From positions 14,422 to 78,421 of the forward strand of contig JALNYN010000001.1 in assembly GCA_023229825.1 (NCBI GenBank): 64,000 bases of DNA, written 5' to 3'. Position 1 is the stretch's first letter. The number at the start of each line of letters is the position of its first letter. A program made the translations under genes and the position numbers. This stretch comes from Minisyncoccota bacterium (lineage in GTDB: Bacteria; Patescibacteriota; Minisyncoccia; Phycocordibacterales; CAIJYI01). Of this stretch, positions 1,594-21,729 are shown piece after piece. Under the pieces are notes generated by a model. The model had not been told where the DNA came from. It did no database searches and saw only the letters and a list, made by a program, of their open reading frames with translations.

Positions 1594-4500
1594 ATGAGTA
1601 AATATAACAAAGTGATCGCAGGCTTCGTGGGTTTTGCAACCGCTGTTACCATGTCGTTCGGAACGGCATCGGCAGCAACGAATGAAGAACTCCAAGCTCA
1701 GATCTCAGCTTTGCTCGCGCAAATCACAAGTTTGCAGGCACAGCTTGGTACAGCACAGACAGGAACAGGAACAACCGTTGGAGCATACACCTTCGCTATG
1801 GACCTCACATTGGGATCCACCGGCGCTGATGTTTTGAATCTCCAAAAAGTTCTCAATAGCGATTCTGCTACGCAGGTCGCGACGACTGGAGCCGGCGCAC
1901 CGGGAAGTGAATCCACTTACTTCGGAGCGAAGACGAAAGCCGCAGTTATGAAATTCCAGACCAAGCATGGAATCGCCCCGGTCGCCGGATACGTTGGTCC
2001 TAAGACCAGAGCTATCCTCAACACCTTGGGAGGTACCACCACTGGCGGAAACACCGGCGGAGTAGTTACTCCGGTCGGAACCGATGTCAGCGTTGCGTTG
2101 TCCTTCGACAACCCGGCTGCCGGCACCGTCATCGCCGGACAAGCGATCGCCGACTTGGCACACTTCACATTCTCCAACCCGACAGGCACGGAGGTGAAAG
2201 TTACCAAATTGGTTTTTAACCGCACCGGTATTTCCAATGACTCAACTCTCGTAAATGTCTATCTCTTTGATGGAGCCAAGAGAGTTACTGATTCTGCTTC
2301 AGTTGCCTCGAGTAAGATCACCTTCAACGATCCAACCGGAATCTTCACGATTCCTGCCGGTGGCATGAAGACAGTAGCCCTCAGAGCTGATATCGTTTCT
2401 ACTGCTACTGGTCAGATCGTCGGTATAGCACTTGCGGAAGTTACTGCAACAGCTACCGTAGGCGGCGCATTCCCTATTCTTGGAAATAATCATTCCATAG
2501 CGACCGCGTCAATGGCTGTAGTCGATTTCAGTGATACAACAACTCCGAGTGGAACGAATGTCGCGGTTGATCCTCAGACGGATTACACCATGTGGCAAAA
2601 TACTGTTAGCTTCACCACTCGAGCTGTTGATATGAAAGGTATCTCTTTCCGACAGATCGGATCTGTCGCTACTGCTGATCTCGGAAACTTCAAACTCTTC
2701 ATTGATGGTACCCAGGTTGGAACCACTGTTGCATCTTTGGATGCGAACGGATATGTTAATTTCGACCTCACAGCTACCCCAAAGAGATTGGCAACCGGTA
2801 GCCACACCATTAAATTGGTTGGCGACATCATTGGCGGTTCAACAAGAACTTTCAGCTTCTCTCTCCAACAGGCGAGCGATGCCGTTTTTGTAGATTCACA
2901 ACTTGGTCAGCCGATATTGATCAAGAAAGCTGCCACTACTTTCTCGGCTGAGGATTCCGGTTCTCATCTCGTGAATGCTGGTACTTTGACTATCACCAAG
3001 AAAACAGATTCCCCGACAGGAAATATTACTTTGACCGCAAGCAACGCGCTTTTGGCAAAGTATGAGGTTAAGGCTGCCGGTGAACCGATCAAAGTTGAGA
3101 ATTTGAGAGTAGGTATCGTTCAGAGCACCGAAGGTACTTACACCGACTACTCTTTGAGAAACGGTTCATTATTCATTCTCAAAGCTGATGGTACTGAAGA
3201 GCAGGTAGGCAATACCGCCTCTATCGCGGGAAACAGCTCTGCTACCGTTGGATACACTCAATTTAACCTTGGTTCTTCTTTGGTTGTATATCCTGGAACT
3301 CCGGTTATTTTGTTGGTTCGAGCCGACATCTATAATGATGCTGGCACAACAAATGCGACGGCAATTGCAGCAACGGAAACTCTGCAGGTAAGAATTCTCA
3401 CCGGTTCTAACAACTGGAAGAGAGTAAATTCTTTGACCTACGATTCTAACACCACACAGTTAGCAAATGAACTGACTGTAACCGCAGGAAACTTCACCGT
3501 TTCTGCAAGCTCAGCCTATGCGAATCGTGCGGTCGTGAAGCCTCAGACTGCTTACAAATTGGCTTCCTTCAATGTTGTTTCAACTGAGACCGAGCCGATC
3601 AATCTCGATACGTTCACGATGACATTCACAGGAAGCTCTGTTGGTGTTGCCACTGGTCTTTCTGATGTATACGTCAAGTATGGTACTAAGACCACAAGCG
3701 TAAAATCCACGGTTGCAAGTACTACTTCGTCATACAGTATCAGCGAAGTACTCGCTCCGAATACCACAATGCCAGTAGAGGTTTGGGGTAATCTGACCTC
3801 ATCTCTCGCGACAGATAACACAATTATCACTGGAGTCACCATATCTGGAACCACCGCAAATTCTGCAACAGCGCGATCTTCTTCTGCGACAGGACAAACT
3901 TTGACGATTTCCGCAGGATCAATTTCCGCCGCTGTTGTGAGTGATTCTACTCTCGCAACGAAGCTCTTGGTTGGAAATACACAGCCGAAAGTTGCATCTT
4001 TCCGCTTCACTGCGCTTAATGACACTTACACGATCACCGACATTGCGCTCAAAGCAAGTACAACCGGAAATGCTATCACCAGCTTGGTCTTGAAATCAGC
4101 CGGTATGGCAGACAAGATCGTATTCTTGGGAACCGCTAACGGAGATGATAGCGTTGCTACATCTTCCGGTATGACGCTCTCAGTTCCTGCCAACAATACT
4201 ACTGGAACAGTAGTCGATGTTTATCTGAACTTGAACGATATCGGACCGAACGCAGGAACCACTGGTTCTAATGTTCGCGTTACAATCGATACCTATAAAG
4301 CGCAAACATCGGCCGGATCGACCGAAACCAAGCCTACCGATATTTACGGTAACTTGATGTATGTCTACAAATCCATCCCGACGATTACTTTGGTTAACCT
4401 TCCGTCAACAACTTTGACGAACGGAACCAAGACCCTCTCCAAATTCACCATCGCGGCTGACGCTGCCGGTGCCATTGGATGGAAACAGATCGTTTGGCAG

Positions 4501-4944
4501 GTTACCAAATCAGCTGCAGTTACTCTCGCGAGAACGGGCGTCTCACTGGTAGATAGCAACAACAACACTATCGCCGGAACGTTCGCGACCTCGACAGCTA
4601 CGCAGGCTGGAACACTTATGTTTGACACGGATGCAACCACCGGATACATCTCATTCATCGCTACTGATGAGCAGCCGATCTCCACAACGGAGACCTACAG
4701 CTTGAAGGGTACTATCGCTGGAACCGCTTCCAATCTTTCGTTTGGAACCTACATCGATACGTCTTCTTCATACGCTGCGGCGGATGCGTACTTGGACATT
4801 GATAGTGCTGTGCATGATGGACTCGTTGACTTCATCTGGACTGATCGCTCAGCGAACAGCCACGACACCACCACCAATGACTGGAACACAGATTACAAGA
4901 TCAAGAATCTCTCGACTGACACCCAGACGATGACGGGTGCCTAA
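1594..4944 (+). CDS. giant cell-surface protein: N-terminal signal/TM, coiled coil, peptidoglycan-binding domain (PG_binding_1-like), then long Thr/Ser/Gly-rich Ig-like repeat region
   Basis: 1116-aa ORF; the motif LNLQKVLNSD...YFGAKTKAAVMKFQTKHGIAPVAGYVGPKTRAIL is typical of PG_binding_1; low-complexity beta-rich remainder. Confidence 0.85.
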   Translation: MSKYNKVIAGFVGFATAVTMSFGTASAATNEELQAQISALLAQITSLQAQLGTAQTGTGTTVGAYTFAMDLTLGSTGADVLNLQKVLNSDSATQVATTGAGAPGSESTYFGAKTKAAVMKFQTKHGIAPVAGYVGPKTRAILNTLGGTTTGGNTGGVVTPVGTDVSVALSFDNPAAGTVIAGQAIADLAHFTFSNPTGTEVKVTKLVFNRTGISNDSTLVNVYLFDGAKRVTDSASVASSKITFNDPTGIFTIPAGGMKTVALRADIVSTATGQIVGIALAEVTATATVGGAFPILGNNHSIATASMAVVDFSDTTTPSGTNVAVDPQTDYTMWQNTVSFTTRAVDMKGISFRQIGSVATADLGNFKLFIDGTQVGTTVASLDANGYVNFDLTATPKRLATGSHTIKLVGDIIGGSTRTFSFSLQQASDAVFVDSQLGQPILIKKAATTFSAEDSGSHLVNAGTLTITKKTDSPTGNITLTASNALLAKYEVKAAGEPIKVENLRVGIVQSTEGTYTDYSLRNGSLFILKADGTEEQVGNTASIAGNSSATVGYTQFNLGSSLVVYPGTPVILLVRADIYNDAGTTNATAIAATETLQVRILTGSNNWKRVNSLTYDSNTTQLANELTVTAGNFTVSASSAYANRAVVKPQTAYKLASFNVVSTETEPINLDTFTMTFTGSSVGVATGLSDVYVKYGTKTTSVKSTVASTTSSYSISEVLAPNTTMPVEVWGNLTSSLATDNTIITGVTISGTTANSATARSSSATGQTLTISAGSISAAVVSDSTLATKLLVGNTQPKVASFRFTALNDTYTITDIALKASTTGNAITSLVLKSAGMADKIVFLGTANGDDSVATSSGMTLSVPANNTTGTVVDVYLNLNDIGPNAGTTGSNVRVTIDTYKAQTSAGSTETKPTDIYGNLMYVYKSIPTITLVNLPSTTLTNGTKTLSKFTIAADAAGAIGWKQIVWQVTKSAAVTLARTGVSLVDSNNNTIAGTFATSTATQAGTLMFDTDATTGYISFIATDEQPISTTETYSLKGTIAGTASNLSFGTYIDTSSSYAAADAYLDIDSAVHDGLVDFIWTDRSANSHDTTTNDWNTDYKIKNLSTDTQTMTGA

Positions 4945-5138: not shown

Positions 5139-5155
5139 TGTATAATGCTTGAATG
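5139..5155 (+). promoter_or_regulatory. extended -10 (TGTATAAT) 6 nt upstream of the ATG: candidate leaderless promoter for the RAYT gene
   Basis: tgtataatgcttgaATG; no SD possible. Confidence 0.45.
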
Positions 5156-5848
5156 GAACGAAAATTTAATTTTAGCGTTGATGAGTACTATCATATTTAT
5201 AGCCGTGGAGTTGAGAAGCGTGAAATTTTTCTTGATAATGGAGATAAAGAAAGATTTTTACGTTTATTGTTCTTATCTAACTCAGGCAAACCATTTAATT
5301 TTAGAGAAGTTTCCGGAATTTCTTTTGAAAATATTTCTCGAGGAGAACCACGAACAGCCATAGGAGCTTTTTGCCTTATGCCCAATCATTTTCATCTACT
5401 ATTACGAGAAACCGAGGAGGGCGGAATAAGTGCATTTATCGGAAAACTTCTCACTGGCTATTCAATGTATTTTAATAAAAAATACAAACGAAAGGGTGTA
5501 GTTTTTGAAAGCCGTTTTCAGGCTCAGCACGTCGATAACGACAATTACCTCAAATATCTCTTTGCTTATATCCATCTCAATCCGGTAAAACTCATCGAAC
5601 CGGAATGGAAAGAGAAGGGAATCAAAGATCAGAAATTTGCCGAAGACTATCTGAATAAATATCGCTACAGTAGCTATGAAGATCATATGGGCACAGAAAG
5701 AGAAGAAGCCCTTATCCTCGACAAAGAGTCTTTCCCAGAATATTTCGAAAGATCCCGTGATTTCAAAGACTATGTAACGGATTGGCTCAATTATCGCGAC
5801 GAAGAGGAAGGCGGTGGCGACACTGTTCCCGAGGGCGGTCCTCGGTAA
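5153..5848 (+). CDS. REP-associated tyrosine transposase (RAYT / IS200-like Y1 HUH transposase)
   Basis: HUH motif NHFHLLL and the Y..YIHLNPVK motif, matching E. coli RayT (HMHCIW; YIYINPVKHG); flanked by REP1 palindromes; paralog at 61945-62655. Confidence 0.85.
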   Translation: MERKFNFSVDEYYHIYSRGVEKREIFLDNGDKERFLRLLFLSNSGKPFNFREVSGISFENISRGEPRTAIGAFCLMPNHFHLLLRETEEGGISAFIGKLLTGYSMYFNKKYKRKGVVFESRFQAQHVDNDNYLKYLFAYIHLNPVKLIEPEWKEKGIKDQKFAEDYLNKYRYSSYEDHMGTEREEALILDKESFPEYFERSRDFKDYVTDWLNYRDEEEGGGDTVPEGGPR

Positions 5849-5950: not shown

Positions 5951-8900
5951 ATGAAAAAAATAATATTTCTCGCCACGGTGCTCTTTTTCGCACCTTCGTT
6001 CGTTTTTGCTGGAACTCCGGTCTGGGGTACTTTAAATTCCGATACCGTCTGGACGGCGGAAAGCGGTCCGTACCTTGTAGACTTCGCGATAGTCCCGGAA
6101 GGAGTAACACTTACAGTGGAAGAAGGAACCGTAGTTAAATTCACCGGACAGCGTTCAATGCTTGAAGTTTCCGGAAACCTTGTCGTTTCAGGGACTGAAT
6201 TGAGCCCCGTTGTTTTTACCTCCATAAATGACGATTCTGTCGGCGGCGATACCGGCACGGGAGCGAATGAGTGGGGAAACATTCTGATAAAGAACGGAGG
6301 AGTTGCGGAGATCGATCACACGATCGTTCGCTATGGCGGATGGACTGGATGGCTTTCTTCCGCCGCTCCGTCCAACATTTGGAACGACGGGGGAAACCTC
6401 ACCCTAACAAACTCGAAGATCAGCAATGCATGGACAGGCATAACGCATTCAGCGGGAAATACCGCGCTCACGGAAAACATATTCACGGAAAACCATATGG
6501 GAATTTCCGCGGGCGGAACGGGAAACGTCCGTTTCGATCATAATAATTTTTTTAATAATACCGGCAATGTGGCTTGGTTCGACCTCACTAACGGCGTCTC
6601 CCTTGCCCATTCGGATAATACCGCATGGGGAGGAACTCCGGGATTGGTTCTCGCAGGCGAGGCCGGCGCAGATTATGTTTTTGAGAAAGACGGAGCGCCA
6701 TACGTCATCGATCACTTCACGGTTCCCGCGGGAAAGACAGTAACATCGCGGCAGGGAACGGCATTTAAAATATTGAATCCCGTCAGCGAGATAAATATTT
6801 CCGGAACGTGGAACGCCGAAGGGACTTCGGATGAACCCGTTTACTTTACTTCCATTAAAGATGATACCGTTCTGGGAGATACCAACGGCGACGCCGATGC
6901 CACCAGCCCGGCTAAGAAAGATTGGGAAGGTATCATCATTTTACAAGATGGCAAAGCAAACTTCGATCATTCCGTTTTCCGCTATGGAGGATACAACGGC
7001 TGGCTGCAAAGCACTTATTCATCCAACATATCAAACAACGGAGGAGTTCTTATTATCTCCAATTCAGAAATTTCGCACGCCCCTATCGGGGTTAATCATG
7101 TTTTAGGGAATACCTCAATTTACGATAGCAATTTATCTGAAAATATTCAGGGAATAAATGCAATGGGAAAAGGAGTTATCGAAATCAAAAGGAATATTTT
7201 TGCAAACACAAGCTATGCGTGTTCTCTTAAATTATCAGAACTTTTGTTAACGAACGCCGGCAACAAAGTTCTTGGAAATGGATTCCGCGGTTTTAATATT
7301 GAAGGTACATTATCAACCAACCAAACATTAGCTAAAGATGTTCCATATATTGTTTCTACCATTACCATTCCTGCCGGAAAAATGCTCACGGTGCTTCCCG
7401 GAGCGGTAATTAAAATGAAGACTGCTTATGGCAGAATTACAGTTGATGGCGAGATTCAGGTCCTTGGAACAAAAGATGATCCGATATATTTTACATCAAT
7501 AAAGGACGACGAAGTCTACGGCGATACGAACGGCGACGGGAATGTTTCTTTTCCGCAACCCGGCAACTGGTCTGCGGTCGTCGTGCATCCGGGAGGAGCC
7601 GCAAACTTCGACCATGCGATCATCAAATACGGCGGATATTATTATTACGGTGATTCAATTCTCTACAATGACGGTGGAACCCTTTCCGTAAAGAACTCGC
7701 AAATCTCTTTCTCTCCCAGTTACGGAATTTATCACCGAAGCGGCTCGACCACCGTGAATTACAGCACGATACGAAACAACGGTTTCGGAGTATTCAATGC
7801 GGGATCCGAAAGTATCGACGCGACAAACAATTTCTGGGGCACCGCCGCCGGACCAAATCACAACGGTTTGCCGATCGAAGCGATTTTGAACGACAAGGTT
7901 TCGGATCAAGTAAATTATGCTCCGTGGCTTGATTATGATCCAATGGTAACGCTTCCGACATCAATAACGCTTACCAACGGCGGCGAAACGGAAAACGACG
8001 ATTTGCAAGATGGAAAAGGAGTGGCGGATAAAACTCAGTTTACGTTTTCTGTTGTTGCATCGGAAAATCTAGTGGACATAAAACTTGTAACCGATTCATC
8101 GGACGTCGGCATCAATCCGGGTCAATTCTTTTTGTACGCTTCAGGAACCGAAGGCGTTTACTCTCGCGCTCTTACCTTTCCGAAGGGACACTATCGCTAT
8201 CATTTTGAAGCGGGAGACGGAAACGGCGGCGTATATCGTTACCCGGAAGCAACCGAACTTGAATTTACAACCGGCTATTCAAACGTGGCGTTTTTGCCGG
8301 GGATCGAGGCATCGCGGCTGTACATAAATGGATATAAACAATGGGAGCCGCTCGGCGACAATGATGCCGAAGATCTTTTGATGAATAGCAACGGAAAAAG
8401 CGTAAAAGACAATATTTACACCAAAGATGTGATAAATAATGCTTACCTGCCGATAAAAGGGAATGTGTACCAGTCGTTTATTGAATCGATGAACGAATTA
8501 AAAAGCAGTCATATTATTACCGATTGGAAACCTCTCGCCTATGACTGGCGGTTGTCTTTTGGTGATGTTTTGAATAACGGGCAAATAATGAATGACGGAA
8601 TAAACTATACGCGAGAAATTTCTCCGCTTGATACGCCGAATATCATCGGCGAGATACATCGCCTTGCCGAAAGTTCCGACACGGGAAAAGTTACGATTGT
8701 TACGCATTCCATGGGAGGTCTCCTCGCAAAAAAACTCGCCATAAAACTCGGGGCGGATGCGCCGAAACTGTTGGATCAAATGATATTCGTCGCCTCTCCG
8801 CAGGCGGGGACGCCTCAAGCGATCGGCGCGCTTCTTCACGGTGCGGATGTCGCACTTCCACTGACCTCTTTGGATTACGGCATTTCTCCGAAAGAAGGAA

Positions 8901-10489
8901 GAAAACTCTCGCAAAATATGCCGTCGGCGTATTCTTTGCTTCCTTCCGCAAAATATTTCAGGTATGTTGATAATTCGGTGATCACTTTTGACGATTCCGA
9001 TTTTCTCGAACCGTGGCGGACCAAATACGGACAGAAAATTCATTCGCAGGAACTTCTTCGTAATTTTTTGATTGACCAGGCGCGCCCGCCGCTTACCGTT
9101 TTTTACCCGCTAAATTTCCCCGCATCAACAAATCCGACGCTTCTTGCAAACGCCGAAACTTTGCATGATACGGAAATCGATAATTGGGAACCGCCGACCG
9201 GCGTGCAATTAACTGAAATTGCCGGGTGGGGAGTGGAAACGCTTGCGACGATCGAATACAAAAAAGGAATTTATGCTCCCTGCATTGAATGGAAAGAGGC
9301 GACTTGCGTGAAAAAAGATGAAATTCCCGTTCTTGAACCGCATCTGAAAACGGTAGTTGATGGCGATGGAACGGTCGTCGTGCCGAGCGCGCTGTGGACG
9401 GCGACAAGTACGGGGGTGAGGAAATATTGGGTGGATTTGGCGACTTATAATTCTTGGAAAAATCTATTTCAAACAGGAACTCTTATCGCGCGCAAACATG
9501 CTGATATTTTTGAGGTTCCAGAAATCAGAGATTTTACAAAAAACCTGATTCTTCGTAATGGGATTATTCCTGAAAAATATATTTTTACATCAACTCCTCC
9601 AAACACCTTTGATTCCGACATGCGTCTCCATTTCACACTTCACTCGCCGCTTGCGCTTAATCTTTACGATGACCAAGGCAACCACACCGGATATTCCACC
9701 ACCACGCGCGAGTTGGAAGAAAATATCCCCGGCAGTCAGTACATCGCTTTCGGCGAATTGAAATATATCAGCGTTCCGGCATCTTCAAATCTTCACCTCG
9801 CCATGAACGGATACGCAAGCGGGTCGTTCACTCTGGATGTGGAGGAATGGCAAGGAGATGCTATTATGGCATCAACAACCTTTGCCGCTATTCCTTCGGC
9901 GACAAGCACCGTCGCGACAATGAGTGTTTTGGCAAACGAAGGAGTTGCCGGGGTTTCGCCTCTGTACGTTGACGAAAACGGCGATGGTACAATTGACATG
10001 ACGCTTGCTCCAAAGATCGACGGAACGGTTTTTCCTGATTTCACTCCGCCCGAAGCAAAAATTTCCGTTGATCCGGCGACAAAGGACTTGCTCATTGAAG
10101 GCGTTGATGAAAACCCGACGACCATTTCAGAAAACGGAAATACCTACACAATTACCGATTCGTCGGGAAACACGACAACTCTCTTCTTTCAAAAAACCTT
10201 CACCGCAAAGCGTCTCACTTTTGCAAAATTGACAGGTGTTCAATACGGAACAGATCCGAAAATATCACTCCCATCGTCTTCGTTTCTGTATCTTTGGAAT
10301 CCGGCACTTGACAGCCAAACCGTCGCCGTCAAAAAAGATTTCATTATTGAAGCGGTGTACAACAAACAGAAAAATCAAACGACTGTGTTTTTAAAAAAGA
10401 AAGGAGAAAAAACACAGAAACAAACCTTTGTAGGATTGAAAGTGGTAAAATTGACTGTGGACAAAGGAATGGTTGGGTATGAGATTTAG
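5951..10489 (+). CDS. giant secreted protein: signal peptide, three tandem ~230-aa beta-helix-like repeats, and an LCAT/PGAP1-like alpha/beta-hydrolase lipase domain
   Basis: 1512 aa; repeats (V/I)xFTSI(N/K)DDxVxGDTNG...FDH..RYGG; nucleophile elbow VTHSMGG and PLAYDWRLSF (the YDWR motif of LCAT family PF02450); paralog at 42703-46113. Confidence 0.85.
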   Translation: MKKIIFLATVLFFAPSFVFAGTPVWGTLNSDTVWTAESGPYLVDFAIVPEGVTLTVEEGTVVKFTGQRSMLEVSGNLVVSGTELSPVVFTSINDDSVGGDTGTGANEWGNILIKNGGVAEIDHTIVRYGGWTGWLSSAAPSNIWNDGGNLTLTNSKISNAWTGITHSAGNTALTENIFTENHMGISAGGTGNVRFDHNNFFNNTGNVAWFDLTNGVSLAHSDNTAWGGTPGLVLAGEAGADYVFEKDGAPYVIDHFTVPAGKTVTSRQGTAFKILNPVSEINISGTWNAEGTSDEPVYFTSIKDDTVLGDTNGDADATSPAKKDWEGIIILQDGKANFDHSVFRYGGYNGWLQSTYSSNISNNGGVLIISNSEISHAPIGVNHVLGNTSIYDSNLSENIQGINAMGKGVIEIKRNIFANTSYACSLKLSELLLTNAGNKVLGNGFRGFNIEGTLSTNQTLAKDVPYIVSTITIPAGKMLTVLPGAVIKMKTAYGRITVDGEIQVLGTKDDPIYFTSIKDDEVYGDTNGDGNVSFPQPGNWSAVVVHPGGAANFDHAIIKYGGYYYYGDSILYNDGGTLSVKNSQISFSPSYGIYHRSGSTTVNYSTIRNNGFGVFNAGSESIDATNNFWGTAAGPNHNGLPIEAILNDKVSDQVNYAPWLDYDPMVTLPTSITLTNGGETENDDLQDGKGVADKTQFTFSVVASENLVDIKLVTDSSDVGINPGQFFLYASGTEGVYSRALTFPKGHYRYHFEAGDGNGGVYRYPEATELEFTTGYSNVAFLPGIEASRLYINGYKQWEPLGDNDAEDLLMNSNGKSVKDNIYTKDVINNAYLPIKGNVYQSFIESMNELKSSHIITDWKPLAYDWRLSFGDVLNNGQIMNDGINYTREISPLDTPNIIGEIHRLAESSDTGKVTIVTHSMGGLLAKKLAIKLGADAPKLLDQMIFVASPQAGTPQAIGALLHGADVALPLTSLDYGISPKEGRKLSQNMPSAYSLLPSAKYFRYVDNSVITFDDSDFLEPWRTKYGQKIHSQELLRNFLIDQARPPLTVFYPLNFPASTNPTLLANAETLHDTEIDNWEPPTGVQLTEIAGWGVETLATIEYKKGIYAPCIEWKEATCVKKDEIPVLEPHLKTVVDGDGTVVVPSALWTATSTGVRKYWVDLATYNSWKNLFQTGTLIARKHADIFEVPEIRDFTKNLILRNGIIPEKYIFTSTPPNTFDSDMRLHFTLHSPLALNLYDDQGNHTGYSTTTRELEENIPGSQYIAFGELKYISVPASSNLHLAMNGYASGSFTLDVEEWQGDAIMASTTFAAIPSATSTVATMSVLANEGVAGVSPLYVDENGDGTIDMTLAPKIDGTVFPDFTPPEAKISVDPATKDLLIEGVDENPTTISENGNTYTITDSSGNTTTLFFQKTFTAKRLTFAKLTGVQYGTDPKISLPSSSFLYLWNPALDSQTVAVKKDFIIEAVYNKQKNQTTVFLKKKGEKTQKQTFVGLKVVKLTVDKGMVGYEI

Positions 10490-10530
10490 GTTGTGGTATA
10501 CTTGAGGTAAGATTAATTGTTAAAAATCTT

Positions 10531-10938
10531 ATGACAAAAAAAAACATTGTGTTGTTTAGTGCATTAGTAGGAACGATTACGTTTTTCTTACTTATCTTTT
10601 CGAGTGAAATCGGATTGTGCCCAAGAAATATCGGTACTTGTTCGCAAAGTTATGATGCAACTGCAACAAACTTTTTCTTGTTTTTACCAATACTTTTCTT
10701 CTCCCTCATCACCTACAAACTTCGCGAAGAAACATTTCGTGCATGGCTTCATTTTGCGTATTGGTGGGTTCCGTTATCAATGTTTCTTACTCTGATAACT
10801 CCTGAGAGCCGCGGCGGCGGATTCGGACCACAAATATCATGGGGAAAAGAAGACACCGCTTTTGTGTTTTCGGGTTTGTTCGCCATCATCTCCCTCATCC
10901 TTATCATTTACAAATCCATAAAGTTAAGAGGGAAGTGA
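10531..10938 (+). CDS. small multi-TM membrane protein, C-terminus ...ISLILIIYKSIKLRGK (paralog family 1 of 3)
   Basis: Shares FAYWW(V/L)P and an identical C-terminal 14 aa with 11083-11472 and 46141-46572. Confidence 0.7.
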   Translation: MTKKNIVLFSALVGTITFFLLIFSSEIGLCPRNIGTCSQSYDATATNFFLFLPILFFSLITYKLREETFRAWLHFAYWWVPLSMFLTLITPESRGGGFGPQISWGKEDTAFVFSGLFAIISLILIIYKSIKLRGK

Positions 10939-11082
10939 TTGAAATTACAACATATATTTTAGAAAACAATCGTACCTGGACAATCGCGAAATTCCAAAAG
11001 AAAAACTTGCTGACAAAAGATGAAGCGGACGAGTTGATAAAAATGCTTGGTGAGATTATGAGTAAGGTGGTAAAATAGGGGT

Positions 11083-11472
11083 ATGAAGAATAAAACTCTA
11101 ATTGTGATATTGTTTATATCGTTAATTTTATTGGCAGGTACATTTTTAGTTTGTCCCACCCCAACCGATGTTTGTTTGAGATATGACGAACTTTCCGTTT
11201 TTCTGATTCTTTTTTCTGCCCCGGTATTCCTCCTGTCATTAATTCTCCTTTTTCTCCGAGAAGAAATTTTTCGTTCTTGGAAACATTTCGCTTATTGGTG
11301 GCTCCCGATTTCCGCTTTCTTCATTATGTTAGCACCATCAACTGATCGCGGAAGCTTTGATTTTGGTATGGGATTCGATAGGGAGGCGGTAACTTGGTTT
11401 TTTGCGGTCTTATTTTTCCTTATCTCCCTCATCCTCATCATCTACAAATCGATAAAACTGCGCGGAAAATAA
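11083..11472 (+). CDS. small multi-TM membrane protein, paralog 2 (same C-terminal IYKSIKLRGK tail)
   Basis: Tandem paralog of 10531-10938. Confidence 0.7.
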   Translation: MKNKTLIVILFISLILLAGTFLVCPTPTDVCLRYDELSVFLILFSAPVFLLSLILLFLREEIFRSWKHFAYWWLPISAFFIMLAPSTDRGSFDFGMGFDREAVTWFFAVLFFLISLILIIYKSIKLRGK

Positions 11473-11497: not shown

Positions 11498-12709
11498 ATG
11501 CCTTCTGTTTGCTTTTATTTTCAAGTTCACCAGCCGTTTCGCGTTAAGCGATATCAGTTTTTTCAGATCGGGCACGACCGGGATTATTTTAATGATCGGT
11601 CGAATACGAAGCTCAATAATGAGAATATCCTCAACAAGGTGGCGGGGAAGTGCTATCTGCCTGCCAATGCTGTCATGTTGGAATTGCTGGAGAAGCATCC
11701 CGAATTTAAGATAAGCTACTCGTTTTCCGGAGTTTTTTTGGATCAGCTCGAAAAGTATTCCCCTCAAACATTGCTTTCATTCCAAAAATTGGTGGAAACC
11801 GGTCGTGTGGAAGTTCTTGATGAAACATACTACCATTCGCTTTCGTTCCTCTATTCAAAAGATGAATTTAAAAGGCAGGTACAGCTTCATCGCGAGAAAG
11901 TCAAAAAACTTTTCGGTGTGACCCCGACCGCTTTCCGTAATACTGAACTCATTTACAACAACGAACTCGCCAATTTTATCGAAGGGATGGGGTATAAAGC
12001 GATACTGGCCGAAGGCGCCGATCATATTCTTGGCTGGCGAAGTCCGAATTTTCTCTACCGTCCGAAAGGAGCGAAACAGATTAAGTTGCTTCTAAAAAAC
12101 TATAAACTTTCCGACGATATTGCGTTTCGCTTCTCTTCAAAAGAATGGAACGAGCATCCTCTGACCGCGCCGAAATTTGCGAATTGGGTTTCGCAGGTGA
12201 ACGGCAACGGCAATGTGGTCAATCTCTTCATGGATTACGAGACCTTCGGCGAGCATCAATGGGAAGATACTGGCATTTTTAATTTCCTTCGGCATATGCC
12301 CGGCGAGATCCTTAAAAATCCCGACAATAATTTTATGACTCCGACCGAATCGGCGCTGAAATATCCGTCCGTGGCAGAGCTTGATGTGCATAATTTCATG
12401 TCATGGGCCGACGTTGAGCGCGATCTCTCGGCGTGGCTCTCCAATTCGATGCAGTGGGAGGCGGCGCACAAATTGTATGAAATGGAACAAAAAGTGATGG
12501 AGAGTATGGATAAAGCGCTCATTGAGGATTGGCGAAAATTGCAAACTTCAGACCATCTTTACTATATGTGTACAAAGTGGTTTAATGATGGAGACGTACA
12601 CAAATACTTCAATCCGTATGAATCACCCTACGATGCCTTCATTTCATTCATGAATGTTCTGAACGACATGAAACTTCGATTGCAGGCGCCGAAACTTTGC
12701 GCGGAATAA
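11498..12709 (+). CDS. glycoside hydrolase family 57-like (alpha-glucan-active) protein
   Basis: N-terminal CFYFQVHQPFR (HQP motif) and ETFGEH region characteristic of GH57. Confidence 0.65.
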   Translation: MPSVCFYFQVHQPFRVKRYQFFQIGHDRDYFNDRSNTKLNNENILNKVAGKCYLPANAVMLELLEKHPEFKISYSFSGVFLDQLEKYSPQTLLSFQKLVETGRVEVLDETYYHSLSFLYSKDEFKRQVQLHREKVKKLFGVTPTAFRNTELIYNNELANFIEGMGYKAILAEGADHILGWRSPNFLYRPKGAKQIKLLLKNYKLSDDIAFRFSSKEWNEHPLTAPKFANWVSQVNGNGNVVNLFMDYETFGEHQWEDTGIFNFLRHMPGEILKNPDNNFMTPTESALKYPSVAELDVHNFMSWADVERDLSAWLSNSMQWEAAHKLYEMEQKVMESMDKALIEDWRKLQTSDHLYYMCTKWFNDGDVHKYFNPYESPYDAFISFMNVLNDMKLRLQAPKLCAE

Positions 12710-12715
12710 GTGCCG

Positions 12716-12895
12716 ATATCCGTCGCCGGACGGGGTGAGGAATGGGTAGGGACCCATTCCGTAAAACCTTCTTCTAATATTTTGTGAGGTACGAAACAAA
12801 ATATTGAAAAGGTGTACTGCTCCTGTAGGGAGGGTAACCCCGCTCCAAACGTTTCGGACTGGGGTACAACCCCAGTCCGGCGGACGACGGAGCAA
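12716..12895. repeat. Family-F repeat copy 2 (12716-12833) followed by a family-A unit (12834-12895)
   Basis: Near-identical to 822-967. Confidence 0.7.
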
Positions 12896-12914
12896 GTAAA
12901 AATTAAGAAAAAAT

Positions 12915-13505
12915 ATGGAAAACGACATCTTCAAAAAATATAAAACGTTCGTCATGGTGGGAAAACCGGGAAGCGGTAAGGGGATGCAAACCCGTCTTCT
13001 TGCCGAGAAAAGCGGCTTTAAAACTTTCTCCACCGGCGATAAATTTCGAGAACTGCAGAAAGCTGATACTCCGCTCGGACACAAGACCGCCGAGATCATG
13101 GATCGCGGAAGCCTGATGCCTTATTGGTTCGCCGGTTTTCTTTTTCAAGAGGCGGTGCTCTATCTGCCTGAAAACGAGGGTATTATCTACGAAGGAGCAG
13201 CAAGAAAAGCTCCCGAAGCTGAACTTTTTCACGACGTAATGACATGGCTTGAGCGTCCCTATAAAGCTATTTATCTAGATGTACACGATGATGAAGTGAC
13301 GAAGCGCCTTATAAAACGAGGCGGAATAGAAAACCGTGCCGATGACAATGAAGAAGCAATAAAACACCGGTTGAAAGTATATCAGGAGGAGGTTGTTCCA
13401 GCTGTTCAGGTTTTTCAAAAATATGGCACTATCCTTGATGTCAACGGCGATCAGACCCCCGAAGAAGTCCATCAGGAAATATTAAAGATGATCGCAGGAA
13501 GCTAG
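12915..13505 (+). CDS. adk: adenylate kinase
   Basis: P-loop GKPGSGKGMQ, LID region, conserved order adk-map. Confidence 0.9.
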   Translation: MENDIFKKYKTFVMVGKPGSGKGMQTRLLAEKSGFKTFSTGDKFRELQKADTPLGHKTAEIMDRGSLMPYWFAGFLFQEAVLYLPENEGIIYEGAARKAPEAELFHDVMTWLERPYKAIYLDVHDDEVTKRLIKRGGIENRADDNEEAIKHRLKVYQEEVVPAVQVFQKYGTILDVNGDQTPEEVHQEILKMIAGS

Positions 13506-13512
13506 ACAGCCG

Positions 13513-13589
13513 TCGTCATCCCGGGCAACGACCCGGGATCCACGGTGAAATCGCCGGACGTGGATTCCGGGTCGCGGCCCGGAATGACG
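13513..13589. repeat. Family-B inverted pair (CGTCATCCCGGGCAACGACCCGGGATCCACGG / CCGGACGTGGATTCCGGGTCGCGGCCCGGAATGACG)
   Basis: Direct reading; in the adk-map spacer. Confidence 0.6.
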
Positions 13590-13617
13590 AATAAAGCGAT
13601 GAAATTTTTTAAACTTT

Positions 13618-14388
13618 ATGTCCATAATAATAAAATCCCCCAAAGAAATAGAAATACTTCGCGAAGGCGGCAAGCGGCTGGCTCATGTGTTGGACGTGGT
13701 TGAAAAGGCGGTTCGACCCGGCGTGAGCACGAAAGATCTCGATAAAATTGCGTATGATACCGTTATCGAAATGGGCGATACTCCGGCGTTTCTGAATTAT
13801 CAACCTTATGGCGCGGATTTTCCGTATCCGGGAACGATCTGTCTTTCCGTGAACGATGAAATAGTGCACGGTCTTCCAAAACACGAACGAATTTTGCAGG
13901 AAGGGGATATCATCGGCCTCGACATGGGGATCATCCACGGCGGACTTATTACCGACAGCGCTCGCACGGTCGCGGTGGGGAAGATCAGTGAAAAAGCGCA
14001 GAAGCTCATGGATACGACGAAAAAAGCTCTTGAAGTGGGAATTTCAGCCATAAAGATCGGCGGACACGTGGGTGATGTCGGATATGCCATTGAACGATTC
14101 GTGAAGCCCTACAAATATGGCATTGTACGAGAGCTCGGAGGCCACGGCGTAGGCCGACAAGTCCACGAAGACCCATATATCCCCAATTTCGGCACAAAAA
14201 AGGGCGTAGGCGCGAAATGGAAGCCGGGAATGGTGGTCGCCATCGAGCCGATGTTGAACGAAGGGAAGCGCGGGATCGTTCTCGACCGAGATGGTTACAC
14301 ATATCGAACCGCCGACCGTTCACTCTCTGCTCACTTTGAACACACAATCGCCATCACAAAAGATGGGGTGGAAATACTTACGAAATAA
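13618..14388 (+). CDS. map: methionine aminopeptidase type I
   Basis: Conserved pita-bread fold motifs (DxxGxxxDxARTVAVG, HGxGxxxHE). Confidence 0.92.
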   Translation: MSIIIKSPKEIEILREGGKRLAHVLDVVEKAVRPGVSTKDLDKIAYDTVIEMGDTPAFLNYQPYGADFPYPGTICLSVNDEIVHGLPKHERILQEGDIIGLDMGIIHGGLITDSARTVAVGKISEKAQKLMDTTKKALEVGISAIKIGGHVGDVGYAIERFVKPYKYGIVRELGGHGVGRQVHEDPYIPNFGTKKGVGAKWKPGMVVAIEPMLNEGKRGIVLDRDGYTYRTADRSLSAHFEHTIAITKDGVEILTK

Positions 14389-14449: not shown

Positions 14450-14486
14450 TTTTTGTTTGCACAATTCGTCGAAATTCGCAAAAGGT

Positions 14487-14504
14487 TGTATAATAGAGCT
14501 CATG
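14487..14504 (+). promoter_or_regulatory. -10 TATAAT 9 nt before the ATG at 14502: candidate leaderless start
   Basis: ttgtataatagagctcATG. Confidence 0.4.
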
Positions 14505-17261
14505 GAAGACCATTTTAAAATTTTGCCTCAGTTTAAGAATCCTGCTGAGGAGCTTACTTTTTTGCGTACTGCCGTTCGTGAACAGCAGGAAAAATTGGCG
14601 GAGCTTGGGGTGGAAACGACGCAGGAAAAACTGATCGGCGAAAATCTTGCGCAGTATAAAGCCATTCTGCCTTCGGAGGCTTTGGCTGAAGGGCATCGCA
14701 TGGAAGAAGGGGAAGTCGACGCGATCGTGCTTGATCTTGCTCCTGAAGCGCATGACTCCCAGATGGAAGAATTACTGGGTATTTTGCAGGAGCGGGGAAT
14801 AATGAATGCGCTTTCCGTCGTCGCAGGGCTTCACAATCCGCATATCGAAGACGATTTTCATCGCGTCCTCGTGCAATACATCAAGAGCGTTGAAGATAGC
14901 AGTTTGAAACAGCGTGGAACAGAGCGCCTTTTTGAAGAACTTCATATGACGCTGTACGAAGTTTCTCTGCCGTTGCCTGAAAAAGAAGACAAGAACAAAG
15001 CGCTCAAAGAACTTATCTCCGGAATGCAGCAATTCTATGCAGGCATGATCTCTGTCGATCTCGAGACCAGAAAACATGCGGACCGAAATTACTACTCTTT
15101 GGAGGTTGCGCTTCCGCACGACAGCGATGAGGTTTCTTTTCATGTGGCGGTTCCCGATACAAAAAAAGATCTTTTTGAAAAACAAGTCCTCGCCATATTT
15201 CCCGACGCGCACGTCATTGAAAACAAAAATGATTACAATATTTTCAATAACGATGGAATTTCCGTGGCAGCCTACGCCGTTCCCTCGGGAAATATCGTTT
15301 TTCCGCTCAAAACTTATGACGAATTCGATTATGATCCGCTCAATGTGGTCTTGAATGTCTTTTCAAAATTGCAGCGCCTTGGAGAGGGTGCTGCCATTCA
15401 GCTGCTCGTTTCTCCTGTCGGTGATGAATATAACGTGCAGTATAAATATGCGCTGAAAAAAATTAAAGAGGGCGTGAAAGTGAAAGATGCTACCGATTTT
15501 CCTAAAAATATTTTGGGAGAGGTGTGGCGCACCGGAAAAGATTTTTGGAAGATACAGATCACGGCTGAAGAAGAAAAAAAACGGCATGATAAAGAAAAAG
15601 AGCGTCTCGACGAGAATGTGGTAAAAATGATCGAAGAAAAGATGGCTCTGCCCATTCTCGATACGAATATCCGCGTAGTTGCATCGGCTTCGAGCCGCGA
15701 ACGCGCCACGCAGATCTTGCACGAGATCGAATCGGCTTTCCATCAATTTACCGACCCAAAAGGCAACGGAATGAAATGGAAAGAAATGAGCGGTGAGAAT
15801 CTTTCCCACATGCTTCACGATTTCAGCTACCGCTTGTTTGAGAACGATGCGAGTTTTCCTCTTAACCTTATGGAGCTGACGACCGTGATGCATTTTCCGG
15901 CAGGAAATGTCGCCATGCCACAGCTGAAAGAAGCAAGGGCGGGAATAGCGCCTGCACCGATAAATATCGGAGAAGAAGGCGTATTGCTTGGAATAAATGA
16001 TTACCGCGGTTCGGAGAAAGAGATCCATTTCGCCAAAGAAGATCGCGTCCGGCATTTCTATGTGATCGGACAGACCGGTACCGGTAAAACCGTTCTTTTG
16101 AAGAACATGATCGTTCAGGATATCCAGAACGGCTCCGGCGTCTGTATGATCGACCCTCACGGGACGGACATTGAAGATATTCTTGCGAATATTCCGCGCG
16201 AACGCATTGATGACGTGATCTATTTCGATCCGAGTTATATGGCGCGCCCGATGGGGCTCAACATGCTGGAATTCGATGAACGATTTCCGGAACAGAAGAC
16301 GTTTGTGGTCAACGAAATGCTCGCGATCTTCAACAAACTGTTCGACATGAAAGTCGCCGGAGGTCCCGCTTTCGAACAGTATTTCCGCAACTCCGCGCTG
16401 CTCGTTCTTGAGCATCCGGAATCCGGTTCTACACTTATGGAGATCGGCCGCGTGCTCGGCGACAAGGCGTTCCGCGAGTTAAAACTTTCTCATTGTAAAA
16501 ATCCGATCATTACGCAATTCTGGCATAATGCCGAAAGGACGACCGGAGAACAATCGCTGGCGAACTACGTGCCCTACATCACGAATAAATTCGACGTGTT
16601 CATTTCGAACGACATCATGCGGCCGATCATTGCGCAGGAAAAGTCTGCCTTCAATTTCCGCAAAGTGATGGATGAAAAGAAAATACTTCTCGTCAATCTT
16701 GCCAAGGGAAGGCTCGGCGATATCAATTCCAGTCTTCTCGGTCTTGTCATCGTCGGAAAAATTTTGATGGCTGCTCTTTCGCGCGTGGATGTCATGGGAA
16801 CCGGAAAAATGCCTCCCGATTTTTATTTGTACATCGACGAGTTCCAGAATGTGACGACCGATTCCATTTCCACGATCCTTTCCGAGGCGAGAAAGTATCG
16901 GCTTTCGCTCAACATTGCGCATCAATTCATTGCCCAGCTTCAGGATGAAATAAAGGATTCGGTATTCGGCAACGTCGGTTCCATGGCGGTCTTTCGCGTC
17001 GGTACCGAAGATGCGGAATTCCTGCAGAAACAATTTGATCCCGTCTTCACTCAAAGCGACATCATCAAGCTCGAGAACTACAACGCTTATATGAAAATGC
17101 TGATCGGCGGCCAGCCCGGCAAGCCTTTTAATATTAAGACGGTCGCTCCGAACAAGGGAAATAGAGAAATGGTCCCGCTCATCAAGGAATTGTCGTATTT
17201 GAAATTCGGAAGGGATAGGGCGCAGATCGAGGCGGAAATCTTGGCTAAGTATAAGCGATAG
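14502..17261 (+). CDS. VirD4/TraD/TraG-like (type IV coupling protein-like) or FtsK/HerA-superfamily P-loop ATPase with an ~480-aa unique N-terminal region
   Basis: Walker A VIGQTGTGKTV, Walker B LYIDEFQNV, AAA_10/TrwB-like C-terminal half; alternative start 14457. Confidence 0.65.
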   Translation: MEDHFKILPQFKNPAEELTFLRTAVREQQEKLAELGVETTQEKLIGENLAQYKAILPSEALAEGHRMEEGEVDAIVLDLAPEAHDSQMEELLGILQERGIMNALSVVAGLHNPHIEDDFHRVLVQYIKSVEDSSLKQRGTERLFEELHMTLYEVSLPLPEKEDKNKALKELISGMQQFYAGMISVDLETRKHADRNYYSLEVALPHDSDEVSFHVAVPDTKKDLFEKQVLAIFPDAHVIENKNDYNIFNNDGISVAAYAVPSGNIVFPLKTYDEFDYDPLNVVLNVFSKLQRLGEGAAIQLLVSPVGDEYNVQYKYALKKIKEGVKVKDATDFPKNILGEVWRTGKDFWKIQITAEEEKKRHDKEKERLDENVVKMIEEKMALPILDTNIRVVASASSRERATQILHEIESAFHQFTDPKGNGMKWKEMSGENLSHMLHDFSYRLFENDASFPLNLMELTTVMHFPAGNVAMPQLKEARAGIAPAPINIGEEGVLLGINDYRGSEKEIHFAKEDRVRHFYVIGQTGTGKTVLLKNMIVQDIQNGSGVCMIDPHGTDIEDILANIPRERIDDVIYFDPSYMARPMGLNMLEFDERFPEQKTFVVNEMLAIFNKLFDMKVAGGPAFEQYFRNSALLVLEHPESGSTLMEIGRVLGDKAFRELKLSHCKNPIITQFWHNAERTTGEQSLANYVPYITNKFDVFISNDIMRPIIAQEKSAFNFRKVMDEKKILLVNLAKGRLGDINSSLLGLVIVGKILMAALSRVDVMGTGKMPPDFYLYIDEFQNVTTDSISTILSEARKYRLSLNIAHQFIAQLQDEIKDSVFGNVGSMAVFRVGTEDAEFLQKQFDPVFTQSDIIKLENYNAYMKMLIGGQPGKPFNIKTVAPNKGNREMVPLIKELSYLKFGRDRAQIEAEILAKYKR

Positions 17262-21500: not shown

Positions 21501-21729
21501 GACTTTGGTCGCGAAGTTCCGCACGAAAGATTTGACCGGCGTTTCCGTCGGCAAGAAAGTTCCACTCGTGCTGACAGCCCGGCTCTCTGGTGGTATGAAG
21601 GCTGAAGGAACCGATACGGTTGAAATAATAAGCAAAGGCGCATTTTCAGTCTTATCTGATGCGTTTACGCAGCTTGCCGGCGTTTTGACGGCCACCCGGA
21701 AATTATTCGCTCAATTGCCAGGATTATAA
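18547..21729 (+). CDS. membrane-anchored cell-wall hydrolase: parallel beta-helix repeats fused to an NlpC/P60 domain plus C-terminal beta-rich domains
   Basis: N-terminal TM; beta-helix repeats (NxxGIxL, SxNxVxxN); NlpC/P60 Cys-His: GVDCSGLV ... DHVGMFVGG. Confidence 0.8.
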   Translation: MYKKFLESPIHHKIIFATIALVVLLLLTFAGIFYAKKAFTYPAPSFPNYFRMPTDPSHMRGETDGTGTHFAITDSEYLNITLDSTETVDMRLTSIPKVITMMFEATTTATRSASSGQATAQITLSGLASNTTYYKYEDDYHHLAQFTSDNNGAYTYTQDISVQHFVFIQTVKSTKFIVDNITGGDCSTIGTWNAGTKTCTLTQDLTETVQIDSDGVTFDGNGHKITITPDYTANGVYISGKASTTVKNLTVNGAYEGIFLFLNSGVRVSKNTFTGNMDGIYLRFGGDNAIKSNVVSDNYRNGITVYDSTNNQILENTAMGNNYSDFNIQEDYIGSAICDNIITGNIGFGGRPIGFFNSPTTLNGGTFSELILCDADSSDIRNVTIKSSDNGFGGGGLLAFYTDHANFNNSTSNDNIHGVHLHKSHSNIFENVTVMHDGYNVLLDNSNSNILKNISAGSDGFIQFTLANDNELDGATIDESAGIGFYYQSNSNRLHNFTFPDQCQIYTDNRGSTGNLIYNNNFIGGQCQITGMTGNSFNLPKPIGGNYWSDYDTPAEGCSDVDSDGFCDAPYVFVGAQDNLPWTRQDGWKVTVDIGQAASDLAKLVVDGQYLGDGNTWGGKGWDPNQAKYVTPSEIFAGYHFWNNAISVRAIDFGAGVDCSGLVQWSFNRSFDPNKSLLKNVIRYDNADGQFRNNSVPLTELELRPGDLLFLDKNLNGVRDHVGMFVGGNAASDVVESHSPIRGIISSSKIEFKTRDGFIENQSIRRVVISPTIAGQINAGSPIDLTVTDPEGFTLTPETAIQTDDELLREVPGELYYTENVLGSDGHPEDIIYWPVQKNGDYLITVTAEPDAAPTETFDLTFISGTGSTTIVASNIPISEIPAQSYIIRSSDGNFEKVIPAKIKIKPETMNLASGGIITVALQFDPGFGVVVHDIATSTLRLAGARPIRTAIEVEEKIPPPKNEKTSKKQKDHGEYEDDEEMEVLTLVAKFRTKDLTGVSVGKKVPLVLTARLSGGMKAEGTDTVEIISKGAFSVLSDAFTQLAGVLTATRKLFAQLPGL

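Follow-up and report, generated by a model that had tools for sequence, protein, structure and literature searches.

A putative LCAT-type lipase and a small four-helix membrane protein encoded as a gene pair in Patescibacteria

Two gene modules in a Minisyncoccota genome

We analysed a 64,000-nucleotide stretch of the genome of a Minisyncoccota bacterium (contig JALNYN010000001.1), referred to here as the window. It carries two modules in which a gene for a giant putative exported protein, lipA or lipB, is followed by genes for small membrane proteins, smp1 and smp2 behind lipA and smp3 behind lipB (Table 1). An earlier note, made from the letters of this DNA alone, had described these five open reading frames (ORFs), and all five are present where it placed them. 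Comparison with related genomes defines a widespread gene pair restricted to the Patescibacteria, or candidate phyla radiation (CPR), with at least 762 homologues of the lipase and 1,709 representative clusters of the small membrane protein. The hairpin directly 3' of smp3 is likely the terminator of a lipB–smp3 operon. Terminator-like hairpins are common 3' of homologous small genes, which is consistent with a two-gene operon; a universal element past the small-gene stop codon was sought across the homologous loci and not found.

Table 1. Positions of the two lipase modules and their parts in the window.
Feature	Position	Strand	Description and evidence
lipA	5951-10489	+	ORF, 1512 aa; giant putative exported protein
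smp1	10531-10938	+	ORF, 135 aa, four transmembrane (TM) helices; start 42 nt past lipA stop codon; A3 family hidden Markov model (HMM), E 2.3e-50
lipase 3' remnant	10980-11078	+	last 32 codons + stop; ends 5 nt before smp2; BLAST-type match, tblastn, sequence
smp2	11083-11472	+	ORF, 129 aa, four TM helices; AlphaFold2 four-helix model
lipB	42703-46113	+	ORF, 1136 aa; giant putative exported protein
smp3	46141-46572	+	ORF, 143 aa; start 28 nt past lipB stop codon; A3 HMM, E 2.8e-44
hairpin directly 3' of smp3	46582-46619	+	RNA fold -24.9 kcal/mol, z = -5.5, 0/200 shuffles as stable
lipA shared module (aa 665-1349)	7943-9997	+	BLASTP vs lipB
lipB shared module (aa 346-1043)	43738-45831	+	BLASTP vs lipA; AlphaFold2 model
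lipA triad	Ser920 8708-8710; Asp1139 9365-9367; His1183 9497-9499	+	YDWR at 8540-8551
lipB triad	Ser614 44542-44544; Asp842 45226-45228; His875 45325-45327	+	YDWR at 44374-44385

The giant proteins share an LCAT/LPLA2-type module

LipA and LipB share a module of about 690 residues, which aligns with 36% identity over ~740 residues (BLASTP, E 3e-111), and their N-terminal parts are unrelated to each other. Both observations bear out the earlier description of the two proteins as paralogues with different N-terminal domains. The Pfam family LCAT (PF02450) matches LipA at 28.0 bits and LipB at 47.7 bits, above the gathering cut-off of 21. PGAP1 (PF07819) exceeds its cut-off of 24.3 bits in LipB (30.4 bits) but not in LipA (22.8 bits). 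In both proteins the PGAP1 match spans only ~58 residues round the nucleophile, covering 60 of 233 profile positions, and is best read as a generic overlap between alpha/beta hydrolases. The earlier assignment to an LCAT/PGAP1 family is upheld in its LCAT part by the PF02450 scores, by the YDWR motif present in both proteins and by the fold of the LipB module. The nucleophile motif that it gave, GHSMGG, is that of LipB, and LipA has THSMGG.

The conservation of a catalytic Ser, Asp and His had been proposed as a check. An alignment of 42 sequences shows no variation in YDWR, in the HSxGG nucleophile elbow, in the Asp of DGDGTV or in a downstream His, with invariant columns at H268, S269, G271, G272, G496, D497 and H530. 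Ser, Asp, His and YDWR are present in 78 of 79 lipases gathered from genomes; the exception (locus L064) is frameshifted, so that all complete lipases retain them. We take the three residues of LipA and LipB to be the equivalents of the LCAT/LPLA2 catalytic residues, on the basis of motif correspondence rather than a residue-level superposition.

The AlphaFold2 model of the LipB module (pLDDT 89.8, pTM 0.91) was compared with the PDB using Foldseek. The top matches are LPLA2 structures (4x95/4x90; E 5e-12, target-normalised TM-score 0.63–0.64), and LCAT is also found (4xwg; E 3e-8, TM-score 0.60). Sequence identity to these solved enzymes is just 14–15%, and a PDB search by sequence gives marginal matches only, a weak one being the PGAP1-like Tle4 structure 4r1d. 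In the model, beta-sandwich domains flank the hydrolase core on both sides. By homology, the LipA module would have the same layout, with an LCAT/LPLA2-type alpha/beta hydrolase between an N-terminal and a C-terminal beta-sandwich. Membership of the shared module in the LCAT/LPLA2 family is supported by sequence, motifs and fold.

All of the homologues with a source name come from Patescibacteria, and most of the 120 homologues listed carry PF02450. LipB is 100% identical to a Candidatus Paceibacterota protein at NCBI, from a metagenome-assembled genome, which places the window's ultra-small, episymbiotic organism in this CPR group. Like the LCAT/LPLA2/PDAT family (PF02450), these proteins combine an alpha/beta-hydrolase core with a [G/A/T]HSxG nucleophile, YDWR, the Asp in DGDGTV and a downstream His. 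Unlike the known LCAT and LPLA2 enzymes, they are bacterial, ~700–1500 aa long, and equipped with two beta-sandwich flanks and a variable N-terminal beta-helix, propeller, LamG or other domain. The cap region between Ser and Asp is also longer, 228 residues in LipB, and the eukaryotic LCAT/LPLA2 enzymes have no counterpart of the partner gene. The lipases are a new bacterial branch of a known enzyme family. By analogy with LCAT and LPLA2, the expected chemistry is phospholipase A activity, acyl transfer from glycerophospholipids, or both.

The N-termini of LipA (MKKIIFLATVLFFAPSFVFA|GTP) and LipB (MKSKYAFILVVASLFFFANFADA|RT) resemble signal peptides when judged by eye, and both proteins are probably exported through an ordinary Sec signal. 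Neither contains an LPXTG motif or a C-terminal TM segment. The N-terminal region of LipA consists of three beta-helix-like repeats of ~210 aa, with a weak para_beta_helix match and an FTSxxDD motif that recurs at residues 89, 299 and 514; its C-terminal extension is beta-rich. The N-terminal domain of LipB is beta-propeller-like (weak WD40/lactonase matches), and its C-terminal region is helical. A C-terminal lipase domain that would predict the presence of the partner gene was sought, and none was found.

The partner is a four-helix membrane protein with a conserved tail

Smp1, Smp2 and Smp3 are paralogous and 35–42% identical overall. Their last 13 residues, ILIIYKSIKLRGK, are the same in all three; a longer, 16-residue tail (ISLILIIYKSIKLRGK) is common to Smp1 and Smp2 only, and Smp3 has VSVILIIYKSIKLRGK there. 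The identical C-terminal tail described earlier thus stands at 13 residues for the whole set and at 16 for Smp1 and Smp2. The FAYWW.P motif attributed to all three proteins is likewise found in Smp1 and Smp2, Smp3 having FAVWYLP.

At the DNA level, the tails of the window copies differ at many synonymous sites. Over the last 13 codons of ten close-clade genes, a mean of 4.4 codons differ synonymously and 1.4 non-synonymously (mostly R/K and I/V), and outside the tail the same ten proteins are ~39% identical. The many synonymous and few replacement changes indicate strong purifying selection on the tail at the peptide level. Recent gene conversion as the source of the tail identity was rejected on the same grounds. 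Pooled synonymous divergence (dS) is lower in the tail than elsewhere, 0.34 versus 0.5–1.1 in 11 pairs only, and some DNA-level homogenisation of tails may occur within arrays. In the 11 moderately diverged pairs of small genes, the pooled ratio of non-synonymous to synonymous divergence (dN/dS) is 0.18 in the tail and 0.5–0.67 in the remainder.

Among 66 diverse family members, mean pairwise identity is highest in the C-terminal segment (0.56). The turn between TM2 and TM3, with its invariant F..W motif, comes second (0.42) and the first outer loop last (0.20); conservation is also higher in TM3 and TM4 than in the outer loops. Only W, F, S, I and K occur as residues that are invariant or nearly so, none suggesting catalysis, and no invariant polar or charged residue lies inside the membrane helices of the 66 members. 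This pattern suggests that the small protein is non-enzymatic. The AlphaFold2 model of Smp2 has four TM helices (mean pLDDT 81.4, pTM 0.73), which span residues 2–127 of 129 and leave outer loops of 12 and 16 residues. A Foldseek search with this model gave no informative relative. The net charge in the family is +2.4 at the N-terminus, +2.1 in the TM2–TM3 turn and +3.8 in the tail, compared with −0.9 and −1.15 in the outer loops. This strong positive-inside bias clearly favours a predicted topology with both termini in the cytoplasm. The first, outward loop has exactly two cysteines in 55 of 66 members and none in 10, and we propose that the pair is of the disulfide type.

A full HMM search returned 911 of the 1,709 clusters at E <= 1e-10; nearly all of the best 150 of the 1,709 are standalone proteins of ~120–160 aa. 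A word-indexed search found 14 clusters only. Scans of Smp1–Smp3 against Pfam and NCBIfam gave no match, including none to DUF4418 at E <= 0.1. DUF4418, a family of uncharacterised small integral membrane proteins, is matched weakly by 12 of the 66 members (best E 3.8e-5); most of the family have no match to it at E <= 1.

Several known classes of protein were compared with the family. The tail does not qualify as a sortase, exosortase or lipoprotein signal: no LPXTG, PEP or GG element precedes it, the 'G[LIV]C' behind TM1 does not make a lipobox, and what is conserved is the end of the TM segment and the basic tail as such. A DsbB/VKOR-like thiol oxidase acting on a Cys pair of the lipase was also rejected, since 10 of the 66 members have no loop-1 Cys and the family has neither CxxC nor a second Cys pair; DsbB appeared solely as a non-significant Foldseek match. 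Unlike SMR-type four-TM transporters and flippases (EmrE, ArnE/F), the 66 members have no Multi_Drug_Res match and no invariant acidic residue, and they show the strong positive-inside bias. In the LipA–Lif operons of Pseudomonas and Burkholderia, a secreted lipase gene is followed by a gene for a membrane-anchored accessory protein that the enzyme needs, an arrangement resembling the one described here. The lipase-specific foldase Lif has a single TM anchor and a large periplasmic helical domain of ~300 aa, unlike the small protein, which is nearly all membrane-embedded with four TM helices and tiny outer loops.

Lipase and partner genes occur together across Patescibacteria

With the lipase alignment we retrieved 80 genome loci from many CPR lineages, 77 of which are informative. 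The HMM places a small gene directly after the lipase in 53 of the 77, and in six more the lipase is followed by a small protein with at least three predicted TM segments, for a total of 59. The small gene starts a median of 8 nt past the lipase stop, and the gap is between −10 and +45 nt in 50 of the 53. Wherever a close homologue of the small protein occurs, an LCAT-domain giant protein precedes it, in neighbourhoods that otherwise differ. A reciprocal scan for the small-protein tail motif in metagenome contigs, which used the narrow A3 alignment and is biased towards the close clade, found a lipase directly upstream at ~22 of 24 informative small-gene loci; the two exceptions are a mis-called start that hides a 926-aa lipase and an IS3 insertion. 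Co-occurrence, which the earlier note had proposed as a test of its idea, is thus seen in both directions, and the idea has withstood this check as well as that of the triad.

Lipase and partner distances are correlated (Mantel r = 0.355 for 51 pairs, a value reached by 0 of 2000 permutations). The same pairing is visible among paralogues. LipB groups with the lipases of L003, L006 and L007a (54–62% identity) and Smp3 with their partners (47–54%); LipA groups with the L007b lipase (54%) and Smp1 with the L007b partner (46%). Lipase and partner therefore appear to duplicate, diverge and be passed on as units. The modules occupy core-like, syntenic positions, next to rplJ/rplL, dnaJ or a conserved surface-protein gene, and not obvious islands.

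IS3-family insertions (HTH_Tnp_1 and rve) lie between or inside lipase and partner genes at two independent loci, L001 5465–6618 (the same in L091) and L102 467–1752. The L001 insertion severs the last ~128 codons of a 1414-aa lipase. Our literature search found no publication on LCAT-family enzymes or on a lipase–partner pairing in CPR, which does not in itself prove that none exists. The partner family, its exclusive pairing and the cassette arrays described below were likewise not found in the literature that we searched.

Orphan partners lie behind lipase fragments

The 144-nt spacer between smp1 and smp2 holds, in frame, the end of an L001-type lipase, 84% identical to residues 668–699 of the L001 enzyme (E 6e-15). 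Its distance to smp2 is that of the intact module in L001. In a relative, the one carrying P0002, the same 5 nt still separate the smp2 orthologue from an upstream gene of at least 606 aa. P0003, which is the partner of P0084, the L001 lipase, matches Smp2 at 60% identity across 74% of the length of Smp2. Because the spacer keeps the 3' end of an L001-type lipase at the spacing of an intact module, smp2 is an orphan whose cognate lipase has been deleted.

This arrangement recurs elsewhere. Lipase 3' fragments of 32–134 codons occupy 8 of 13 spacers between tandem small genes, or seven distinct cases since L006 and L010 are the same contig. Small genes behind such fragments are found in the window, L001, L006, L029, L032, L072 and L110, that is, at ~7 of ~100 loci. 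The fragments match the resident lipase in L006, L029, L072 and L110 and are of a heterologous type in the window and L001; in L032, a decaying lipase is followed by an intact small gene. The fragments lack triad residues, have frames open to the natural stop codon and are 69–97% identical to the resident 3' end. Their dN/dS is 0.09–0.40 against the parent and 0.14–0.25 between fragments. The open frames could be kept through a need of the small gene for translational coupling.

The repeat units, of 740–990 nt, are mosaic: small-gene tail, spacer and lipase fragment are 78–97% identical, and the small-gene body within them has diverged to 31–52% amino acid identity with saturated dS. Such units need either very fast divergence of the body or recombination or gene conversion on the conserved flanks. 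Some arrays are longer, and decay is seen in some copies. Past the second small gene of L029, at 9637–9930, lie a 48-nt stretch that repeats an internal segment of the lipase and a 98-aa fragment. In L072, a third repeat unit begins (6959–7054) past the second small gene, which is itself split into pieces of 106 and 53 aa.

Tandem small genes separated by lipase 3' fragments are a new finding. They resemble the orphan toxin-end/immunity cassettes of contact-dependent inhibition (CDI) and Rhs loci, in which a full-length gene is followed by 3' fragments that each have their own small gene, keep open frames and are in some cases heterologous to the resident gene (PMC3150448). Unlike in the CDI/Rhs cassettes, the lipase fragment here is the non-catalytic C-terminal region, and variation lies in the small-gene body, not in the fragment. 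The catalytic core is central in the lipase, and no VENN or PxxxxDPxGL-type demarcation motif was identified.

A proposed exported lipase with a protective membrane partner

Adjacent pairs of lipase and small protein are known from bacterial antagonism. The type VI secretion system (T6SS) effectors of the Tle group are antibacterial phospholipases encoded with an adjacent immunity protein, Tli. In monoderm bacteria, the secreted phospholipase A TslA, a type VII secretion system (T7SS) effector, is neutralised 1:1 by an adjacent immunity protein that occurs in variable-copy arrays (PMC10730906). The gene pair described here shares with TslA–TilA a (here putative) exported phospholipase beside a small cognate gene, variable arrayed copies, orphan partners and the logic of protecting the producer's own membrane. 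It differs from both TslA–TilA and Tle–Tli in that it has no dedicated secretion system and in that its partner is a polytopic four-TM protein, not soluble or lipid-anchored; toxicity and neutralisation are here proposals.

Our tentative proposal, to which we give somewhat less than an even chance, is that the lipase is an exported phospholipase A/acyltransferase and that the small protein, itself no enzyme, is its cognate partner in the membrane, docking or neutralising it on the producing cell in the manner of an immunity protein. The first gene of this conserved operon of Paceibacteria-type Patescibacteria would encode a Sec-exported serine hydrolase of the LCAT/LPLA2 family that acts outside the cell. 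Its swappable N-terminal beta-rich domains, a beta-helix in LipA and a propeller-like domain in LipB, would most likely be binding modules for different targets, either on the host or on neighbouring cells, and the enzyme would cut or transfer acyl chains of membrane glycerolipids, leaving lysolipids. The second gene, translated right behind the lipase, would supply a four-helix inner-membrane protein cognate to that particular enzyme. Sitting in the producer's membrane, which would consist of the same scavenged lipids, this protein would dock the lipase, neutralise it, or both, as an immunity-like self-protection. Modules would duplicate and diverge as units, and extra partners such as Smp2 would be kept behind in-frame 3' remnants after loss of their lipase; a benefit of the partner that does not strictly depend on a lipase in cis fits best. 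From the sequences and models we infer the export, the substrate, the physical interaction and the protective role. The effector/immunity reading of the earlier note gains indirect support from the co-divergence, the tandem arrays and the orphan partners; the lack of a linked delivery system and the cytoplasmic position of the conserved face count against it. The fast evolution of the small-protein body beside its constrained tail is likewise immunity-like, and the reported lipid dependence of CPR (PMC7242380, PMC11665869) suits the proposal. The lipid scavenging that the earlier note gave as its alternative is as compatible with the data as its effector/immunity reading.

Several observations weigh against this proposal. 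Conservation in the small protein is highest in the F..W..FA turn and the ISLxLIxxKSxKLRGK tail, both on the cytoplasmic side, and its outer loops are short. This is unexpected for a protein that grips an extracellular enzyme; the conserved cytoplasmic face may serve another partner that is shared. The lipase immunity proteins known so far (Tli, TilA) are not polytopic but soluble or lipid-anchored. The lipases have an ordinary signal peptide, as judged by eye, and no linked contact-dependent delivery system. No T6SS or T7SS genes (PAAR/VgrG/Hcp, LXG/WXG) were found among the annotated neighbours in the window and related loci, where only 20 other window ORFs were scanned. By automated criteria, 18 of the 77 lipases have no adjacent partner; five of these cases are artefacts or ambiguous, and the ~13 clear ones, roughly one lipase in five to six, have an intact triad. 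Species phylogeny partly confounds the co-divergence, but does not explain the pattern among paralogues.

Four other accounts were considered. Flipping of lipids by small four-TM proteins is known (ArnE/ArnF of the SMR family), and the partner could handle the products of the lipase. As a flippase-, scramblase- or insertase-like oligomer it would be the conduit or acceptor that takes lysolipids or fatty acids from the outer leaflet into the membrane of the epibiont, the two proteins forming a host-lipid acquisition machine. We consider this unlikely. It would accord with a conserved surface at the cytoplasmic leaflet, with TM3 and TM4 better conserved than the outer loops and with the core-like, syntenic placement of the module. 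It would also meet a need, as CPR bacteria are reported to have no lipid synthesis, lysolipid-rich membranes and no identified mechanism of lipid uptake or breakdown (PMC7242380, PMC11665869). A generic transporter, however, needs neither one copy per lipase paralogue nor co-divergence with it, and a body evolving at a dN/dS of 0.5–0.67 is not expected of one; the helices contain no invariant polar or charged residue, and no SMR or transporter Pfam match or structural relative was found. It is about as improbable that the small protein acts only as an anchor or maturation factor, keeping the lipase on the surface or aiding its export or folding like a foldase, with no protective role. The tight, often overlapping gene junctions suggest stoichiometric co-production, each lipase lineage has one partner lineage, and the lipases have no surface anchor of the LPXTG or TM type; but intact orphan partners whose tail is perfectly conserved after loss or decay of the lipase (smp2, L001, L032) are hard to explain in this way, a foldase-like domain would not fit in the small outer loops, and no C-terminal domain of the lipase tracks with the partner.

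The arrays raise the question of whether the lipase serves mainly to attack competing bacteria, other epibionts on the same host among them, with recombination cassettes through which immunity specificity is exchanged or widened, as in CDI and Rhs systems. The conserved flanks round a diverged small-protein body, the open fragment frames with their low dN/dS between fragments, and the heterologous cassettes behind the resident lipase in the window and L001 all recall the orphan pairs of those systems (PMC3150448). Yet the fragments have no catalytic residues and the core is central, which leaves no exchangeable 'toxin tip'. A simple tandem duplication that broke within the 3' end of the lipase gene, followed by gene conversion, explains much of the pattern, translational coupling could account for the open frames, and arrays are confined to few of the loci; we hold this polymorphic antagonism to be quite improbable. 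The tail, with its hydrophobic stretch, aromatic residue and Lys/Arg cluster, does resemble an ordinary positive-inside TM end, as it would if it were a generic membrane-interface feature and the two genes were neighbours without a functional link. Such passive synteny is hardly credible, given that the linkage is exclusive, holds in both directions, persists in lineages whose other neighbours differ, has a median spacing of 8 nt and is accompanied by co-divergence.

Implications for Patescibacterial lipid biology

The Patescibacteria make up a large share of bacterial diversity. The gene pair ties a phospholipase A/acyl-transferase-type enzyme to a dedicated membrane partner, and as a unit it is a candidate means by which lipid-dependent cells attack or harvest host membranes and spare their own. 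A role in nutrition, the harvest of host lipids, would link directly to the lysolipid-rich membranes of CPR (PMC7242380, PMC11665869). A broader version, which we regard as an outside prospect, is that the operon is the missing device for host-lipid acquisition in Paceibacteria-type Patescibacteria: an adhesin-aimed LCAT-type enzyme strips or trans-acylates host lipids, the partner shields the bilayer and receives the products, and the cassettes allow recombinational switching as hosts and competitors change. If the partner is a membrane-embedded immunity or docking protein for a lipase, it would represent a new type of self-protection; if it handles lipids, it would represent a new family of small lipid-transfer proteins. 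The catalytic residues, the topology and the natural orphan variants described here open the question of CPR lipids to direct experiments.

Two other sets of genes concern lipids. A gene for a fatty-acid hydroxylase/sterol desaturase (PF04116, E 2.9e-26) lies on the reverse strand of the window at 39187–40020, 2.7 kb upstream of lipB; such a lipid-modifying enzyme is notable in an organism thought to be without lipid synthesis. At L003, in one genome only, a PlsC-type acyltransferase gene (PF01553) and an N-acyl synthase-like gene (Autoind_synth/FeeM) are found ~2.3–3 kb downstream of the lipase module (12700–14078). A link of these genes to the re-acylation of scavenged lysolipids is possible.

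Neighbouring genes

A homologue of IS200-like REP-associated tyrosine transposases (RAYT) is encoded directly upstream of lipA (5153–5848, forward strand). RAYT homologues stand next to lipase genes at nine genome loci, at five of them immediately upstream on the same strand, which points to a conserved and possibly domesticated neighbour rather than to a chance insertion. Further upstream of the lipA module, 1594–4944 (+) encodes a surface-type protein of 1116 aa with PG_binding_1 and a long beta-rich region; similar proteins precede the lipase module at ~12 other loci. The extended order is PG-binding giant protein, RAYT-like gene, lipase and small gene, often followed by rplJ–rplL. On the other side, a gene for a family 57 glycoside hydrolase (GH57; 11498–12709, +) starts 26 nt past smp2. 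Its start (ATG[CG]CTTCTGTTTG[CT]TTTTA...) follows the small gene also in L095 and L111, so that the junction is conserved among relatives.

The window encodes a second giant exported-type protein at 18547–21729 (+), in which NosD/beta-helix repeats are joined to a cell-wall peptidase domain of the NlpC/P60 type; genes for two small PsbP-like proteins come next (21733–22338 and 22585–23040). These may form a parallel set of targeting domain, envelope hydrolase and small partner aimed at peptidoglycan. Among adk, map and ndk, a 934-aa protein (14457–17261, +) has weak matches to HerA/DUF87, TraG-D_C and TrwB ATPases and may be a VirD4-like type IV coupling protein standing alone. At 49294–53746 (+), a C-5 cytosine DNA methylase gene is followed by genes for a 759-aa protein with two HATPase_c-type domains and a 325-aa protein without a family match, a cluster that may be of the restriction or defence type. 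A tmRNA gene with the tag peptide ANLSKKAGAVLSPYFAPSYALA lies at 54063–54449 on the reverse strand.

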